DNA from: a virus
Strand: one strand, 5' to 3'
IMG/VR virus record: IMGVR_UViG_3300047673_000158
Location: 1-64,000 of that record
Length of the DNA stretch: 64,000 nt
A model generated the notes under the pieces. The model searched no databases. It was not told the origin of the DNA and worked only from the letters and a program-made list of their open reading frames with translations. This document shows, piece by piece, positions 7,661 through 51,794 of this stretch (its first letter is position 1; every line of letters begins with the position of its first letter). Position numbers and translations under genes: made by a program.

Positions 7661-8128
7661 TTAAAATGGTATGTCGTCGTCCATTTCATCGAATCCGCCG
7701 CCGCCTGCTGGCTTGCCTGCTGCGGCCGGGCGTTCCTGTCGCGCTGGGCGTTCGCTGCGCTGGCCACCATCGCCCGGCGATCCGCCGCCATCGCGGGGGC
7801 TGCCCAGCATTTTCATGGTATCGGCCACAATTTCCGTGCTGTAACGGTCGGTGCCGTCTTGCGCTTGCCACTTGCGCGTTTGAATCTTGCCTTCGATATA
7901 AATCTGGCTGCCCTTCACCAGGTATTTGCTGACGATTTCCGCCAGCTTGCCGAAGAATGCGACGCGGTGCCATTCGGTACGTTCCTGTTTGGCGCCGTCT
8001 TTGTCTGTCCACGTTTCCGTGGTGGCCATCCTGATATTGGCCACAGCGTCCCCGCTGGGCATATACCGTACTTCAGGGTCCGCGCCCAGGTTTCCGATTA
8101 GCAAAACTTTGTTCAAATATGCGGGCAT
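7661..8128 (-). CDS. ssb: Single-stranded DNA-binding protein
   Basis: [25 protein letters not shown]-terminal DDDIPF. Confidence 0.98.
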
Positions 8129-8164
8129 GAAAGTTACTTTCCGAAAGTGTGTGTGGTGCTGCTG

Positions 8165-8443
8165 TTAAGCGAAACTGGACGGCTGGGCGACTGCGCGAGT
8201 AAGGAACATGAAGCCCGTTTGAAGGTGGCGCTTGCCTTCTTCTTCCCAGCCCATGGCATCCACGGCGACGCCTTGCAATTCTTCGTCACCGCGCGCCGCA
8301 TTGTACTGTTTTGCGGTGCGGGCTTGGACCGCTTCCACCAGCTTGCGCGTTTCTTCCCCGTGCGCCTTGATACGGCTCATCAAGTCGATTGTCTCCTGGT
8401 CCAGGTCTTTGTAGCCCGAAATCAGTTTGTGTTGGTCTTTCAT
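8165..8443 (-). CDS. acb2: Acb2-family anti-CBASS cyclic-nucleotide sponge homologue
   Basis: QHKLISGYKDLDQETIDLMSRIK...QTGFMFLTRAVAQPSSF matches the recalled Acb2 pattern, with Y11 and K26 at the same positions. Confidence 0.85.
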   Translation of the reverse strand: MKDQHKLISGYKDLDQETIDLMSRIKAHGEETRKLVEAVQARTAKQYNAARGDEELQGVAVDAMGWEEEGKRHLQTGFMFLTRAVAQPSSFA

Positions 8444-8503
8444 TTTGGTGGTCCTTTTCTTGCTGGGGATCGCGGAACTAAATATGCGCTCCGCGTACTT
8501 CGA

Positions 8504-8731
8504 TTATCTGCGATACCGTTCGTATTCCATAGCGCAGTTTGGCCCGCAAAACAGGCGCTTTTCTGCGTTTTGGGCGAACGGTTCCGCGCACCGTGGGTTT
8601 TTACAGCAGCCTTCTGCAACCGGGCGCGGCGTGGCCAGCGCGCGTGCCCGTTGAGCCTGGATGGATTGCGCCAGGTCAATCTCGATTCTGTGCTGGGCCT
8701 GGTCCAGCACGTCCGAAAACTGTTCAGCCAT
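8504..8731 (-). CDS. TraR/DksA-like C4 zinc-finger protein
   Basis: SDVLDQAQ (DxxDxA) N-terminal helix plus C-x4-C...FC-x3-C; true start is the internal ATG at 8731. Confidence 0.7.
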   Translation of the reverse strand: MAEQFSDVLDQAQHRIEIDLAQSIQAQRARALATPRPVAEGCCKNPRCAEPFAQNAEKRLFCGPNCAMEYERYRR

Positions 8732-9227
8732 TTGCTTGGTTCTCTGCGCGTTCCATGGCGATGACGGCGCCAGCCAGGTAATTAATTGCGCCGAGCAGTT
8801 CGCGCACGCCAGCGCCGTGCGGCAGGCGCTGCGATTCTTCGGATTTCTTGAACGCCTGGCCCAGCAGCGAGCCGACGCCGAAGCGCCGCGCCATGTCCTG
8901 CATAACCTGCGCGTCGAACGGTTCGCCGTCTTGCGCGTGGCGTTCGGCGCCCTTGCCGTGGGCCGCCTGCTGGAAAGCGCGAGCCAGCACGCGGGCAAGG
9001 CTCTGATAGCCCGGCGCGTCCAGCAGCACGCCGGATTCTGCGTGCGACTTCTGCGGCACCACTTCCAGCGCGCCGAAATGGAAATGGTCGTGTGCGCCGG
9101 GCTGCTTGCTGGCAAGCTGCACCACCACCATGCTGCCGTCAAACCGCACCACGCGGCCGTCGCAGCCCGCCATGGGCACGTGCACCGTGTCGCCCACGGA
9201 TACGGAAAGGGTATTGGTGGCTGTCAT
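8724..9227 (-). CDS. Conserved phage protein (GKGxERHA...ELLGAINY helical domain)
   Basis: Coupled to neighbours, conserved in copy 2; function uncertain. Confidence 0.7.
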   Translation of the reverse strand: MTATNTLSVSVGDTVHVPMAGCDGRVVRFDGSMVVVQLASKQPGAHDHFHFGALEVVPQKSHAESGVLLDAPGYQSLARVLARAFQQAAHGKGAERHAQDGEPFDAQVMQDMARRFGVGSLLGQAFKKSEESQRLPHGAGVRELLGAINYLAGAVIAMERAENQANG

Positions 9228-10201
9228 TATTCCGCCCCTTCCAGCGCCGCATTCACGCCCGCCAGTTCAGCGCCGCCCGCTTGGGCTTCGGTGCGTTGCT
9301 TGTCGAATGCTGCGGCTTGGTCTTTCAGGTCTTCCGGGCAGCCCTTGGTGCTGATGCGCTTTTTGATCGCGGCCGGTACGGCTGCCCACGCCTTCACCAG
9401 TTCGGCGGTGCCCTTCGCCGCTTCCAGGCGCAGCGCGTCCAGCGTGCGTTGCTTTTCTTCGTCCACCTTGGTGCCGCCGTCCACCCATTCACGGATGCGC
9501 TGGCCGTGTTCATAGCCCAGGAAGCCCGTATGCCAGCCGACCGTTCCCACGATTTCTTCCAGGTCCGGGTGGCTTTTCAGCACTTCGCGCTGTTTGCCGC
9601 CGTCGTACATCATGATCGACACGGTAAGTTCGAACGGGAAATTCTTTTCGCAAATCGGCTGGATGCCCTGCGGTTCGTATTCCGTCTTGCCGTTGACCCT
9701 CACCATTTTGGTTTTTTCGCGGGCACGCATACACGCGATAATGTGCATCGGCGACGACAGCAGCGCATTGACAAAGCGTTTGTGTTCCGCCTTAGCGTCG
9801 TTCCACTTGGCGATTTTCAGCGACGAGCCGGGCGGGTTCGCGATTTCTTCACAGCCGCCCGTGCCTTCCCATTCGTGGGATACGCTGTCGGTAATGAGCA
9901 CTTCGAAGCCTGCGTGGGCCGCCGCTTCAATCACGTCAATGTAGCGTTGCGGGCTGAACGGTGCGTACAGGTCGTGAATCATGAATTTTTTCACGTTACC
10001 TTCTGCGTCCCGCAGGACGTTAGCAAACAGACGGCCGCGCCGGTTTTCCGTGCAGACGAAACCAATTTTCGACGTGTCGCCCTTAACGATACCGTGGGCG
10101 ATTTCCAGCGCCGTGCGGGTCTTGCCGCCGCCGCTGACGCCAGCCAGGCCAATAACGAGCCGGGCGCCTTCGCGCTCCGCAACTTCAAATTTGATAGTCA
10201 C
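9227..10201 (-). CDS. AAA_24/Sak4-like ATPase (putative ssDNA-annealing recombinase)
   Basis: Walker A GVSGGGKT, Walker B VLITDS.SHEW; lies between exonuclease and ssb. Confidence 0.82.
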   Translation of the reverse strand: MTIKFEVAEREGARLVIGLAGVSGGGKTRTALEIAHGIVKGDTSKIGFVCTENRRGRLFANVLRDAEGNVKKFMIHDLYAPFSPQRYIDVIEAAAHAGFEVLITDSVSHEWEGTGGCEEIANPPGSSLKIAKWNDAKAEHKRFVNALLSSPMHIIACMRAREKTKMVRVNGKTEYEPQGIQPICEKNFPFELTVSIMMYDGGKQREVLKSHPDLEEIVGTVGWHTGFLGYEHGQRIREWVDGGTKVDEEKQRTLDALRLEAAKGTAELVKAWAAVPAAIKKRISTKGCPEDLKDQAAAFDKQRTEAQAGGAELAGVNAALEGAE

Positions 10202-10216
10202 TTTCTTATGTTCCTT

Positions 10217-11341
10217 TTAGGCCGCCAAGCGCTGCACGCCCTGGCTGACATACCAAGCTGGCAATGCCAGGCTTTCCACTTTCTCGCTATACGCCGGAAA
10301 CTTCCCAGACTGAAGGCATTCCGCGTATCGGTTCAGGTTTGCCCGATACTGCATACGCCCTAACTCCACGTCTTCCGCTCGCAACACATACACGCCGACC
10401 GCATACGGCGCCTTTTTTTCCACCGCGATAAACACAAACGCACGCGGCTTGCGCCTCACTGCTGCCAGGCCATCGCGGTAAAACGGGTCCTGGACGTGAT
10501 ACCGATAGTTCGCGCACGACTTCGCGAATTCCTGCGGGCTTGCGTCTTCCGTCGTCTTCAGGTCAACCACGTAATCATCGTCAGTCAGGTAATCCGGCCG
10601 ACAGCGACACAGCACACCCGTTACCTTGTCAATCCAGTACACGGATTGTTCAGGACGCCCAGGTTTTTGCAGCAAGGCTGCTGCCTTCGGATGCGCCATA
10701 ACGGCTTCGCGCATCTTGTGCAGCACGTCCCATTCTTCCGTTTGCAGGATCGAGCGGTGGCCGTTGTTGCGCTCCCATTCCGCCTTCAAATCCCGCCACA
10801 ACGTCACCTGCTTACCGTTCGACCGCAGCAGCGTTGCAAGCTGTTCTGTCGAGCCAGAAACCGCCAGCAGCCCTTCGCGCGATTCGTTCAGCACACCAAT
10901 AAGCTGCTTCAGTTCCGCGCCGCTCATTGCTTCGCAGGCTTCACGCGTCCACACCATCGTGTCCACGTCCGTTTGCGCTGCAATGATGCGTTCAATCTGT
11001 TCTGCCTTCGCGCCCGTGGTTGCCAGTTTTGGCAGCCGCTTTGCGTTCAGGCTTTCCACCATCGACACCAGCACTTCCTTATCGTCAATGGCTTCGGGGT
11101 AATCGCTGCGCCGCATGCCCAGCGTGTATTCCGTCGCAAACACCTTTGGTTCCAGCACCAGCGCATGGAACGCGGTTCCGATGGCCTGCGCCGCTGTCGG
11201 CACCCTGTCTTCGCGAGGCGCATCCAGTGCCGCTTTCAGATGCGCCGGGCTTCGTTCAATCAGGTCCAGAAGCGACTTTGAAACCCCTGGGCCGCCGTGG
11301 TAATCCGCGTTCGAAATATCCGGGTATATGCCTGGCTTCAT
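10217..11341 (-). CDS. RecE/exonuclease VIII-like PD-(D/E)XK nuclease (DUF3799-like)
   Basis: PGIYPDISNADYH, GTAFHALVLEP, RCRPD...VDLKT, YHVQ..FY; start at MKPGIY. Confidence 0.9.
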   Translation of the reverse strand: MKPGIYPDISNADYHGGPGVSKSLLDLIERSPAHLKAALDAPREDRVPTAAQAIGTAFHALVLEPKVFATEYTLGMRRSDYPEAIDDKEVLVSMVESLNAKRLPKLATTGAKAEQIERIIAAQTDVDTMVWTREACEAMSGAELKQLIGVLNESREGLLAVSGSTEQLATLLRSNGKQVTLWRDLKAEWERNNGHRSILQTEEWDVLHKMREAVMAHPKAAALLQKPGRPEQSVYWIDKVTGVLCRCRPDYLTDDDYVVDLKTTEDASPQEFAKSCANYRYHVQDPFYRDGLAAVRRKPRAFVFIAVEKKAPYAVGVYVLRAEDVELGRMQYRANLNRYAECLQSGKFPAYSEKVESLALPAWYVSQGVQRLAA

Positions 11342-11414
11342 GCGTTGAAATCCTGTGCTTCCTATCGAACATACACAAGCGCTAGAGCGTGTTATGTGCC
11401 TGTTCAATAAGGGT

Positions 11415-11456
11415 ATTTTTGATCTTACGTTTCCAAATGTCAACACATAGGGAAAC
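11415..11456 (-). promoter_or_regulatory. Leftward sigma70-type promoter overlapped by a GTT-N7-GGAAAC operator-like site
   Basis: Minus strand TTGACA-17bp-AAAAAT; 16-mer GTTGACATTTGGAAAC at 11429-11444. Confidence 0.6.
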
Positions 11457-11567
11457 ATTATTTAGGCTGTCGTTTGCTGCCAACAGGCCATTTTTACCTA
11501 TGCGGTAAAGTTTGCCGATATTACCCGGATTCGGTCATAATTACCGAATCGTGGCGTGGATACGACA

Positions 11568-13642: not shown

Positions 13643-14623
13643 ATGGCAGAGAAGCAAAAATCGTATCGTGACCTGATCGCAGAAGGCACGGCATCCCGCG
13701 CGAACGCCATCAAAGTACGCATTCAGGACATTTACGAACAGCCGGGCTTTAACCTGCGCGACCCTGACGCCGTGGACGAAAACGGCGAAACGTTCGAGGA
13801 AGGAATTAACCGCTTCGCGGAATACATCGCGGCCGGTGGCACGTTCCCGCCGATTGAAATTCGCATTCGAAGCGAAGGTGGCGTGTGGGTGGTGGACGGA
13901 CACCGCCGACGCCTTGCTGTGCTGCGCGCCATGGAATTGGGCGCACCGCTGGCCGATAAAAACGGCGACGTGTGGATTCACACTATCGCGTTCGAAGGCA
14001 ATGACGTAGACCGCCTTACGCGCATCATGACGTCCAACGAGTCGCGCAAGTTGACCGACCTGGAACGCGCGAACGGTTACAAGCGGCTGGCTGCATTCGG
14101 TTTGTCGTCCAGCGACATTGCCGCGCGAGTGGGCCGCAGCCGCCCGCACGTCGAACAGCTTTTGATCCTGGCGAACGCTAACCACGACGTGCAGGAAATG
14201 GTTAAGGCCGGGAAGGTATCGGCCACGGCTGCCATTGACCTGGTGCGGAAGGAAGGCGAAAACGCAGGCGCCGTGCTGGGTGAAAAGGTGGCGGCAGCCG
14301 GTGGCGGGCGCGTGAAGAAAGGCGACCTGAAACCGGCCGGGCTGCCGCGCAAGGTGGTGGACGAAGTAACCGACGCGCTGGGCTGGTTCAGGAAACACGG
14401 GCTGAATGCGGAACAGCGCAAGGTGGTGGCCCGCGCAGAGAAAGACAACGCCCACGCCGACGCGGTGGTGGAAGTGACGGCGGGCGCGCTGGCCGAACTG
14501 ATGAAAGCGGCCGGGCTGGTGGAAGAAACCCGCAAGCAGCAGGCGGCGAAGGCGGCCGAAAAGGCAGCGAAGGCCAGCCAGGGCGAACTGCCCGAAGACG
14601 GCGCAGAACAGGACGCGGCGTAA
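13643..14623 (+). CDS. ParB-like protein (ParB N-terminal domain plus HTH)
   Basis: GFNLR, VVDGHRR, LTDLERA, IAARVGRSRPHVEQLL; AGGAG RBS. Confidence 0.88.
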   Translation: MAEKQKSYRDLIAEGTASRANAIKVRIQDIYEQPGFNLRDPDAVDENGETFEEGINRFAEYIAAGGTFPPIEIRIRSEGGVWVVDGHRRRLAVLRAMELGAPLADKNGDVWIHTIAFEGNDVDRLTRIMTSNESRKLTDLERANGYKRLAAFGLSSSDIAARVGRSRPHVEQLLILANANHDVQEMVKAGKVSATAAIDLVRKEGENAGAVLGEKVAAAGGGRVKKGDLKPAGLPRKVVDEVTDALGWFRKHGLNAEQRKVVARAEKDNAHADAVVEVTAGALAELMKAAGLVEETRKQQAAKAAEKAAKASQGELPEDGAEQDAA

Positions 14624-20781: not shown

Positions 20782-21027
20782 ATGAACGAAGCGAAGGCAA
20801 TCGAATATGCAACCGTGCATTCTGTCACGGTTTCGACGGATAGAAAGAGCGGAAAGGGGGCGCGGGCGTTTGCGTGGTTTCGTGCTGGTGGTTTCGTCGT
20901 TCGATCGATTGCGGGGCAGCAATGGCGCGTGATCGGCGATGATGGCGCGACGTTCACTGGTAGGCGCGGGCAGTGCATAGAATTCTGCGTGAATGCGACG
21001 GTTATGCGCCGCTCCGATGTCGTTTAA
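20782..21027 (+). CDS. Hypothetical protein
   Basis: ATG after GGGGT RBS downstream of promoter. Confidence 0.6.
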   Translation: MNEAKAIEYATVHSVTVSTDRKSGKGARAFAWFRAGGFVVRSIAGQQWRVIGDDGATFTGRRGQCIEFCVNATVMRRSDVV

Positions 21028-21071
21028 CAACCAGCCCGCCAAGCGCGGGCTTTTCCATGGAGAAACAAAGG

Positions 21072-21404
21072 ATGGCGAATCAAACCCTGGCGGAAATGAT
21101 CGCGGCGCGTGACGAGCTAACGCGCCAGATTGACGAGTTGCAGGCGGCAACCAGGGCCGAAGCGGTGCGGACGGTGGCGGCGCTGATCGCTGAACACGAC
21201 ATGACGGCGCACGAAGTGGGGCTGGTGAGAACGCGGCACATCAAGCCTGGCCGCAAAGGTGCGCCGACGTTCAAGCAGAAGGCGAAGCGACCGCCTAACC
21301 CGCCGAAGTATCGGGACCCGAAGACGGGCGCGACGTGGACGGGGAACGGCAAGGCACCTGCCTGGCTGAACGGGCAGGATCGGGACGAGTTTCTAATCTA
21401 TTGA
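21072..21404 (+). CDS. H-NS family histone-like protein
   Basis: N-terminal coiled coil plus PKYRDPKTGATWTGNGKAPAWL DNA-binding domain. Confidence 0.92.
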   Translation: MANQTLAEMIAARDELTRQIDELQAATRAEAVRTVAALIAEHDMTAHEVGLVRTRHIKPGRKGAPTFKQKAKRPPNPPKYRDPKTGATWTGNGKAPAWLNGQDRDEFLIY

Positions 21405-51533: not shown

Positions 51534-51794
51534 TTACGCGAACGTGGACGGCTGCGCCACGGCGCGAGTAAGCATCATGAAGCCGATTTGCAAATGGCGC
51601 TTCCCTTCTTCTTCCCAGCCCATGGCTTCGATTACCACGGCCTGTTTTTCTTCGTCGCCACGCGCGGCCGTGTACTGCTTCGCGGTGCGCTTTTGTACGG
51701 CTTCCACCAGCCGTTTTGTTTCTTCCCCGTGCGCTTCGATGCGTGCCAGAAGTTCTTCCGTTTCCGGGCTGGTGTTTTGCGTCATTTGGTCCAT
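51534..51794 (-). CDS. Acb2-like protein, variant N-terminus (copy 2)
   Basis: C-terminal GFMMLTRAVAQPSTF retained; GY motif absent and K26 equivalent is E. Confidence 0.75.
   Translation of the reverse strand: MDQMTQNTSPETEELLARIEAHGEETKRLVEAVQKRTAKQYTAARGDEEKQAVVIEAMGWEEEGKRHLQIGFMMLTRAVAQPSTFA

Follow-up and report, generated by a model that had tools for sequence, protein, structure and literature searches.

An Acb2-family protein of an uncultured Burkholderiaceae-type soil phage with the dinucleotide site kept and the canonical trinucleotide site replaced

What does an Acb2 homolog do when one of its two nucleotide-binding sites is kept and the residues of the other are exchanged? The question is raised by a gene in the stretch of viral DNA analyzed here (the window, 64,000 nucleotides, positions 1 to 64,000 of IMG/VR record IMGVR_UViG_3300047673_000158). 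The gene, referred to as winA, is short, belongs to the early genes of an uncultured soil phage and is a genuine member of the Acb2 family; it is a new member of a known family and carries an already known type of variation. The peptide strings quoted in a preliminary description of the locus lie within the translation of the minus-strand open reading frame at 8165-8443. The features of the gene are the following, with the codons for Y11, K26 and M64 to R72 read by eye from the sequence.

8165..8443, minus strand: winA, acb2 homolog, an open reading frame of 92 aa with an ATG start, assigned by Pfam, PDB match and predicted fold
8452..8456, minus strand: Shine-Dalgarno-like AAGGA, 8 nt 5' of the winA ATG, a consensus match only
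8411..8413, minus strand: Y11 codon TAC, aligned to Acb2 Y11, the dinucleotide base-stacking residue
8366..8368, minus strand: K26 codon AAG, aligned to Acb2 K26, which forms the dinucleotide salt bridge
8228..8254, minus strand: codons M64-R72 (M-G-W-E-E-E-G-K-R), replacing the residues of the Acb2 three-fold (cA3) site

The winA protein matches the Pfam model PF24729 (Acb2_Tad1_hairpin) along the entire length of the model (profile positions 1-58 of 58, E 2.4e-10, 40.9 bits, cut-off 27), and a search of the whole record with this profile again placed winA above the cut-off, at 39.4 bits. It also matches PHROG 717 (E 5e-19), and a phmmer search of PDB aligned its residues 1-91 with p26/Acb2 (8h2j_A, E 2.4e-17; 8ixz_A, E 5.4e-17). 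An alignment profile containing the winA family (A1) retrieved p26 from PDB with an E value of 2.8e-29, and identity to PaMx33 Acb2 is 44.1% by tblastn. Together, the matches to PF24729, PHROG 717 and PDB place the similarity to Acb2 far above chance. The AF2 model, built from 22 sequences, has a mean pLDDT of 86.5, with helices at 16-49 and 54-86 and a pLDDT below 50 for residues 1-11; it is a two-helix hairpin, the protomer fold by which Acb2 is recognized. When this model was compared with PDB by Foldseek, ranks 1-6 were chains of PaMx33 Acb2 (TM 0.73-0.75), and ranks 7, 8 and 10 were chains of T4 Vs.4. The proposal that this gene encodes an Acb2 homolog is thus upheld by profile, by sequence match to solved proteins and by predicted fold, and the HMM and structure-prediction comparison that had been suggested as a check returns Acb2 both by PF24729 and by Foldseek. 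Among cultured phages, 214 records in a collection of 50,697 match winA, none of them with 60% identity or more.

In Acb2, the cyclic dinucleotide is stacked by Y11 and salt-bridged by K26, and alanine mutants of either residue abolish dinucleotide binding (Cao et al., PMC10312549). We mapped these residues with a HMMER alignment and with a MAFFT alignment that included PaMx33 Acb2 translated from KU884561.1. Y11, L14, K26 and P88 of winA align with Y11, L14, K26 and P90 of Acb2, and all four are identical. The positional conservation of Y11 and K26, which had been noticed from the sequence, is exact in both alignments, and the dinucleotide roles assigned there to the two residues agree with the published account (PMC10312549).

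The second site differs. R67 and T74 of Acb2 hydrogen-bond the phosphates of cA3, with R67, A70 and I71 making hydrophobic contacts; the R67A substitution abolishes cA3 binding, T74A weakens it, and the two sites are independent (PMC10312549). The same study notes that R67 and T74 are less conserved and that a kink at E64-P65 enlarges the pocket of PaMx33 Acb2. The Acb2 segment G66-R67-W68-L69-A70-I71-G72-K73-T74 is aligned to M64-G65-W66-E67-E68-E69-G70-K71-R72 of winA, so that all four published cA3 contacts are replaced (R67 by G65, A70 by E68, I71 by E69 and T74 by R72). Both alignments confirm that the Acb2 segment R-W-L-A-I-G-K-T reads G-W-E-E-E-G-K-R here, and the trinucleotide roles that had been assigned to R67 and T74 are those given in PMC10312549. 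There is no proline in winA where PaMx33 has its kink, and DSSP on the winA model finds the second helix, 54-86, unbroken. The combination of R67 and T74 with A70 and I71 lining the three-fold pocket, which characterizes the dual-specificity subgroup, is thus absent from winA. What winA resembles in sequence is the dinucleotide-only subgroup of T4 and CHI14, in that its dinucleotide site is intact and its R67/T74 pair incomplete. The T4 and CHI14 Acb2 proteins each have one of R67 and T74, and they bind 3'3'-cGAMP and not cA3 (PMC10312549). From these homologs and from the published R67A and T74A mutants, we infer that winA does not bind cA3. The earlier suggestion that dinucleotide binding is kept while trinucleotide specificity is lost or changed is therefore supported by homology, as a prediction from the literature.

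We favor the reading that winA is probably a dinucleotide-only CBASS sponge, in which the Y11/K26 pocket sequesters the signal and canonical cA3 binding is absent, as in T4 and CHI14. The protein would come from a contractile-tailed phage of ~43 kb with Burkholderiaceae-like hosts and would be expressed from a leftward early operon of recombination and SSB genes. By analogy with Acb2, its two-helix hairpin would self-assemble into a hexamer with three vertex pockets, each built by two N-termini; these pockets would sequester CBASS dinucleotides of the 3'3'-cGAMP type, and the host effector would stay off. The second pocket on the three-fold axis, which accommodates cA3 or cAAG in the PaMx33 and JBD67 proteins, is noncanonical in winA: glycine stands in place of the phosphate-binding R67 and glutamates in place of the hydrophobic contacts, and a pocket charge of about +3 has become net negative. 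Subunit packing would be the main role of the invariant W-E-E-E..R segment.

How unusual is such a protein? A HMMER scan of 1.84 billion representatives gave 537 matches at E <=1e-3; we examined the best 150 of these 537, leaving out the more distant 387. Among these best 150, 143 keep Y11 and likewise 143 keep K26; R67 occurs in 89, T74 in 66, and the pair R67 and T74 in 64. At least one residue of the R67/T74 pair is therefore missing in 86 of these 150 representatives, so loss of the canonical trinucleotide site is ordinary, and a dinucleotide-only Acb2 is an already known kind. The residues of the second site are coupled in the same best 150 of 537, in counts that ignore kinship and depend on the MAFFT columns. 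T74 accompanies R67 in 64 of 89 R67-bearing proteins and occurs in 2 of the 61 others (Fisher p 6e-19); this co-occurrence indicates that the trinucleotide site is a unit, and this unit is missing from winA. Arginine or lysine at position 74 is found only where R67 is absent (20/61 vs 0/89, p 2e-9) and is linked with glutamate or aspartate at 71 (13/40 vs 7/110, p 1e-4). The exclusion of R/K74 by R67 fits the relocation of an arginine inside one pocket better than the loss of that pocket.

The exact G/E/E/R configuration is present in 2 of the best 150 of 537 representatives and marks a small clade of Burkholderiaceae-type phages. We assembled 30 clade sequences, 24 of them distinct: the two copies in the record, 12 IMG/VR loci drawn from the best 80 of 123 confirmed relatives, and the sequences P0001-P0015 and P0021. 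P0016-P0020, which have the canonical E-P-x-R-W..T motif, served as outgroup only. Hadary et al. (2025 preprint) list 4,204 Acb2 homologs, and the string G-W-E-E-E-G has 0 occurrences in the three supplementary files that include this list. A literature search over titles and abstract openings found no paper on Acb2 of Burkholderia-type phages, which does not make the clade undescribed.

Two properties of this clade bear on the favored reading. The first is the constancy of the acidic segment. None of the 24 distinct members collected shows any change at M64-G65-W66-E67-E68-E69 or at R72, although the codons of E68, G70 and R72 show synonymous differences across the clade and the nearby helix positions 71, 73, 75 and 76 are variable. 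Invariant positions make up 22 of the 66 in the C-terminal part, and all four cA3-equivalent positions are among them (hypergeometric 0.010). This conservation is stronger than a disused pocket requires and counts against a dinucleotide-only protein. Over the C-terminal 66 codons, dN/dS is 0.04-0.43, mostly near 0.2, with dS up to 1.2, so this half of the protein is under purifying selection.

The second property is the inconstancy of the dinucleotide site. Y11 and K26 are both present in only 14 of the 24 distinct clade proteins, with replacements in the other 10. On a tree of the C-terminal 66 residues, the state of these two positions needs 7 changes, at least 4 of which are forced by well-supported branches, and both states are present within two sets of sequences that have identical C-terminal halves. 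P0001 differs from winA by 7 residues, all within the first 26 and including Y11N and K26Q; L009 differs from P0008 by 8 residues, all within the first 18 and including Y11Q. Since Y11 and K26 are lost in relatives with identical C-terminal halves, dinucleotide binding is not what keeps the sequence of the clade constant. Outside the clade, Y11 or K26 is missing in 12 of 148 representatives (from the best 150 of 537), a sample clustered at another identity level than that of the clade. Among alleles of the Y/K type, dN/dS over the N-terminal 26 codons is 0.10-0.43 (10 pairs), and this constraint supports the dinucleotide site of winA being in use. Between Y/K and non-Y/K alleles, constraint is visibly weaker, with values of 0.34-1.18 that are unreliable, dS being saturated over 20-26 codons.

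Both properties could be accommodated by a two-site sponge whose three-fold pocket has been rebuilt for a new ligand, an alternative that we consider doubtful. The phosphate-binding arginine would have moved from position 67 to position 74 (R72) of the neighboring protomer, from where it can reach the phosphate place of that protomer's R67 (PMC10312549); G65 would give room, E68 and E69 would read the ligand, and the three-fold site would be the constant function of the clade. Candidate ligands would be a nucleotide bridged by a metal, a signal carrying positive charge, or a trinucleotide whose bases or linkages differ from those of cA3. The invariance of G65, E68, E69 and R72 despite synonymous codon changes speaks for such a pocket, as do the exclusivity of R/K74 with R67 and its link to E/D71 across diverse representatives (the best 150 of 537), and the toleration of Y11/K26 loss, with at least 4 and probably 7 changes, while the C-terminal half is still under purifying selection. 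However, known sponge pockets are deep and positively charged (according to a review, PMC13712596), and six carboxylates facing a nucleotide would be unfavorable. An E(i)/R(i+3) pair could equally be a plain helix or inter-subunit salt bridge, the covariation counts ignore shared ancestry, and a profile search of PDB finds the configuration absent from solved homologs.

The three-copy model of winA bears on both readings. ESMFold2 with three winA copies gave an ipSAE of 0.74 in all three runs vs 0.00 for the best of three controls, a result that may reflect the solved Acb2 hexamer; of proteins solved as homo-pairs, 20 of 30 attain the ipSAE mark, as does 1 of 23 solved as single chains, a calibration from which our use of winA's own alignment and of three copies differs. 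Contact agreement of 71% or more and a partner pLDDT of 79 or more support self-association at the level of the model, in which the three chains form a symmetric pair plus one loosely bound chain rather than a three-fold ring. The confident interface of this model comprises residues 62-67, 69-71 and 73-74, with E67 against residues 80-84 of the partner. E67 and E69 thus fall within the modeled subunit interface, a point against a rebuilt pocket; E68 and R72 are absent from its confident residues, a point against the dinucleotide-only reading. A packing role for part of the acidic segment is plausible on this model. More doubtful still is the full proposal that the invariant G-W-E-E-E-G-x-R represents a three-fold pocket rebuilt for a signal new to sponges, with the dinucleotide pocket as an optional element that has been repeatedly discarded or remodeled.

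The genomic setting returns us to the dinucleotide-only sponge and to two further alternatives. The IMG/VR record is 83,411 bases long and consists of two collinear genomes of ~43.3 kb, ~90% identical and placed head to tail. This arrangement, as assembled, is either a real tandem or an assembly join. Each copy encodes a contractile tail like that of P2 and a terminase and portal like those of lambda, and has an early operon that runs leftward. The order of the operon (exonuclease VIII-like, AAA_24, 167-aa ORF, 75-aa ORF, acb2, SSB, 219-aa ORF) is the same in all 12 clade loci, which come from the best 80 of 123 IMG/VR relatives. The genome copies and the neighbors of winA are listed below in positions of the record, which are also those of the window as far as it extends.

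1-43337: genome copy 1
43338-83411: genome copy 2
7661..8128, minus strand: SSB gene (PF00436, E 6e-39), adjoining winA downstream; the same neighbor in 12/12 clade loci
8504..8731, minus strand: 75-aa ORF with two Cys pairs (zinc-ribbon-like by eye), adjoining winA upstream; kept in 12/12 clade loci and with no match in PHROGs
8724..11458, minus strand: further upstream operon genes, including the 167-aa ORF of no assigned function, from Pfam and PHROGs
9227-10201, minus strand: AAA_24 ATPase, from Pfam/PHROGs
10217-11458, minus strand: PDDEXK/exonuclease VIII-like protein, from Pfam/PHROGs
51534..51794, minus strand: winB, second acb2 allele, 86 aa, at the same position in genome copy 2

The two alleles of the record repeat the pattern of the clade. 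winB is 73% identical to winA over 81 aa, has the same M-G-W-E-E-E-G-K-R segment and is modeled as the same hairpin (pLDDT 89.7), but its N-terminus is remodeled, with threonine for Y11, threonine for L14 and glutamate for K26. The acb2 gene is the most diverged stretch of the 4.7-kb operon between the two copies of the record: identity is 0.67-0.80 across acb2, whereas the flanks are mostly at 0.9-1.0.

Such changes recall Acb2_43, an Acb2 homolog found to bind 3'cADPR without inhibiting CBASS (Hadary et al., 2025 preprint), a finding that counts against reading winA as a dinucleotide CBASS sponge. In Acb2_43, the ligand was changed through remodeling of the N-terminus, the very region that varies among the alleles of the winA clade. 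winA could by analogy be a sponge for a Thoeris-type or other non-CBASS signal, with its vertex pocket or another pocket tuned accordingly, but we find this improbable. The N-terminal 26 residues are indeed the fast-changing part of the clade proteins, and identity between the record copies falls to 33% (0.33) at the 5' end of acb2 vs 90-100% in the flanks. Against this, none of the four published dinucleotide contacts is changed in winA itself, whose N-terminal motif is the canonical one (143/150 among the best 150 of 537), and the extra N- and C-terminal beta-strands of Acb2_43 do not appear in the winA model, though residues 1-11 are modeled there with a pLDDT below 50. The tested Acb2 proteins in the first part of Table S2 of Hadary et al. 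are far more distant and give no phenotype for a site of the E/R type.

A CBASS sponge presupposes hosts in which CBASS is met, and the hosts of the winA phage are likely Burkholderiaceae. One clade member is annotated from Burkholderia vietnamiensis, and another lies on a contig of 42,413 bases from Caballeronia fortuita LMG 29320, all of it phage sequence. Of 150 host-family genomes sampled, 9 encode a SMODS (CBASS) cyclase; in all 6 cyclase loci inspected, the cyclase is paired with a 2TM effector, and no HORMA or NucC lies within +-1.5 kb of these 6 loci. The occurrence of CBASS cyclases with 2TM effectors in the host family fits a dinucleotide sponge, without proving it. No SMODS cyclase was found in two Caballeronia genomes, the only clade-carrying isolate genome and one other, which counts against the favored reading.

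DNA of winA is also present in rhizosphere metagenomes, on short contigs in four DNA runs (X1-X4); a search for sequencing runs containing it gave no RNA run. X1 contains an 851-base contig that matches 7818-8668 exactly, along with a co-occurring second variant; X2 and X4 contain the winA allele with 9 and 18 differences over 550 bases; and X3 contains a copy that has diverged further, at 57 of 998 bases. Both states of the dinucleotide site co-occur in the same rhizosphere sample. The persistence of the allele is relevant to a last alternative, that winA is a drifting or dispensable remnant without benefit to the phage. The repeated loss of binding residues in relatives and the infrequency of CBASS in the host family (9/150 sampled genomes) would suit this explanation, which we nevertheless judge very improbable: the open reading frame is intact and has a ribosome-binding site, dN/dS is ~0.2 for the C-terminal 66 codons (dS 0.7-1.2) and, among Y/K alleles, 0.10-0.43 for the N-terminal part, the locus is kept in all 12 related phage contigs (from the best 80 of 123 relatives), and three of the four rhizosphere runs contain the winA allele, differing at 0 to 18 positions over 550-851 bases.

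If winA is a dinucleotide-only sponge, as we favor, why should its close relatives give up the dinucleotide site? Panoptes defense kills cells when a sponge removes its decoy nucleotide, and T4 escapers of Panoptes carry loss-of-function mutations in acb2, with the Y8A substitution no longer triggering the defense (PMC12657218). Type II Panoptes uses cA3 and is triggered by heterologously expressed Acb2 (PMC13712596). Panoptes-type guards could therefore select against both Acb2 sites, and guards that punish the sequestration of dinucleotides or cA3 are a possible driver of the loss of the dinucleotide pocket in this clade. In the host family, mCpol was found in 1 of 150 sampled genomes, next to a 2TM effector, a frequency too low, like that of SMODS, to weigh either way on Panoptes pressure, for which support is thin.

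Taken by itself, winA is one more Acb2 homolog, from uncultured Burkholderiaceae-type phages, in a family known to vary at the trinucleotide site. What makes it valuable is the series of natural alleles to which it belongs: these proteins are nearly the same apart from the dinucleotide-binding N-terminus, and their acidic segment stays constant. This series bears on the function of the second Acb2 pocket when it is not a cA3 site, and on whether phages in nature shed sponge activity to evade guards that sense sequestration.

Among known systems, Acb2 of PaMx33/PaP2 (p26; PDB 8H2J, 8H2X and 8IXZ-8IY2) is like winA in length, in its hairpin fold (TM 0.75) and, with ~44% identity, in sequence; the two have in common Y11, L14, K26, W68 and a C-terminal T-R-A-V-A-Q-P..F, and both are encoded by a small early phage gene. 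Unlike PaMx33 Acb2, winA has the changes R67G, A70E, I71E and T74R, an inter-helix loop that is two residues shorter and no E64-P65 kink, and the host lineage is Burkholderiaceae for winA vs Pseudomonas for PaMx33/PaP2. JBD67 Acb2, of the same family, binds 3'3'-cGAMP and cA3 (PMC10312549) and, by its published description rather than by our alignment, has both R67 and T74, of which winA has neither. Tad1 matches the same PF24729 hairpin model as winA and, as described in the review cited above (PMC13712596), forms a hexameric sponge that takes trinucleotides at its center and dinucleotides at its periphery; the end-to-end alignment of winA is with Acb2 and not with Tad1, and no Tad1 structure is among the Foldseek matches of the winA model at E <=0.001. 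T4 Vs.4/Acb2 (PDB 7UQ2) and Acb2 of Serratia phage CHI14 represent the predicted functional class of winA, that of the dinucleotide-only proteins (PMC10312549). Both are distant from it in sequence (for T4 Vs.4, 20% identity by Foldseek with TM 0.73 to 7uq2, and E 0.61 with the A1 profile). The two also differ from winA in how the second site departs from the canonical one: T4 keeps T74 and CHI14 keeps R67, whereas winA has neither and instead places an arginine at position 74 and two glutamates in the pocket.

In the alignment of the Acb2 family, restricted to the best 150 of 537 representatives, R67 is tightly coupled with T74 (PaMx33 Acb2 numbering, three-fold site), and an arginine or lysine at position 74 occurs exclusively where R67 is absent. 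In the same 150 representatives, R/K at position 74 is associated with E/D at position 71. This second configuration of the three-fold site recurs among these representatives; a profile search of the PDB returned no solved structure with such an R/K74-type site.

The record that holds the window homologue consists of two collinear phage genomes, each of approximately 43.3 kb and approximately 90% identical, arranged head to tail:

1-43337, first genome copy
43338-64000, second genome copy, running on to 83411 of the record

Separate contigs carrying one genome each are known (43,301 and 42,413 bases), and a single rhizosphere metagenome run, X1, contains both variants. The head-to-tail pair may reflect a genuine tandem or concatemer, or else two strains present together that were merged during assembly. 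The second copy has its own acb2 allele:

51534-51794, minus strand, second acb2 allele, 86 aa

The dinucleotide-site residues of this allele are changed (Y11 to T, L14 to T and K26 to E), and its M-G-W-E-E-E-G-K-R segment is unchanged. It scores 19.5 bits, under the Pfam cut-off, despite which its predicted fold is the same hairpin. Other allele pairs in the clade differ at the same end of the protein: the C-terminal 66 residues are identical between P0001, a clade member, and the window homologue (8165-8443), as they are between the members L009 and P0008. Each of these pairs has 7-8 differences, all of them in the first 18-26 residues, with Y11 and/or K26 among them. Such N-terminal-only differences could be caused by exchange of an N-terminal module or by strong local selection.

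Three further genes of the window were considered:

8504-8731, minus strand, 75-aa ORF with two Cys pairs, immediately upstream of acb2
13643-14623, plus strand, ParB-HTH protein gene
20973-21404, plus strand, phage ORF with an H-NS C-terminal DNA-binding domain (PF00816, E 1.1e-12)

The 75-aa ORF is kept in all 12 clade loci compared (identity 59-100%) and had no match in PHROGs. The phage has the ParB-HTH gene, and none of the 47 ORFs scanned matched an integrase family at E <= 1e-5. In the assembly of a Caballeronia fortuita isolate, a relative makes up a contig of its own, 42,413 bases long. The phage may be maintained as a plasmid-like episome.

On the host side, an mCpol gene adjoins a 2TM effector in one host-family genome (locus L108, G039:C39:25365-28703). 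PADLOC v2 calls the pair a cyclase plus 2TM, and the locus looks Panoptes-like.
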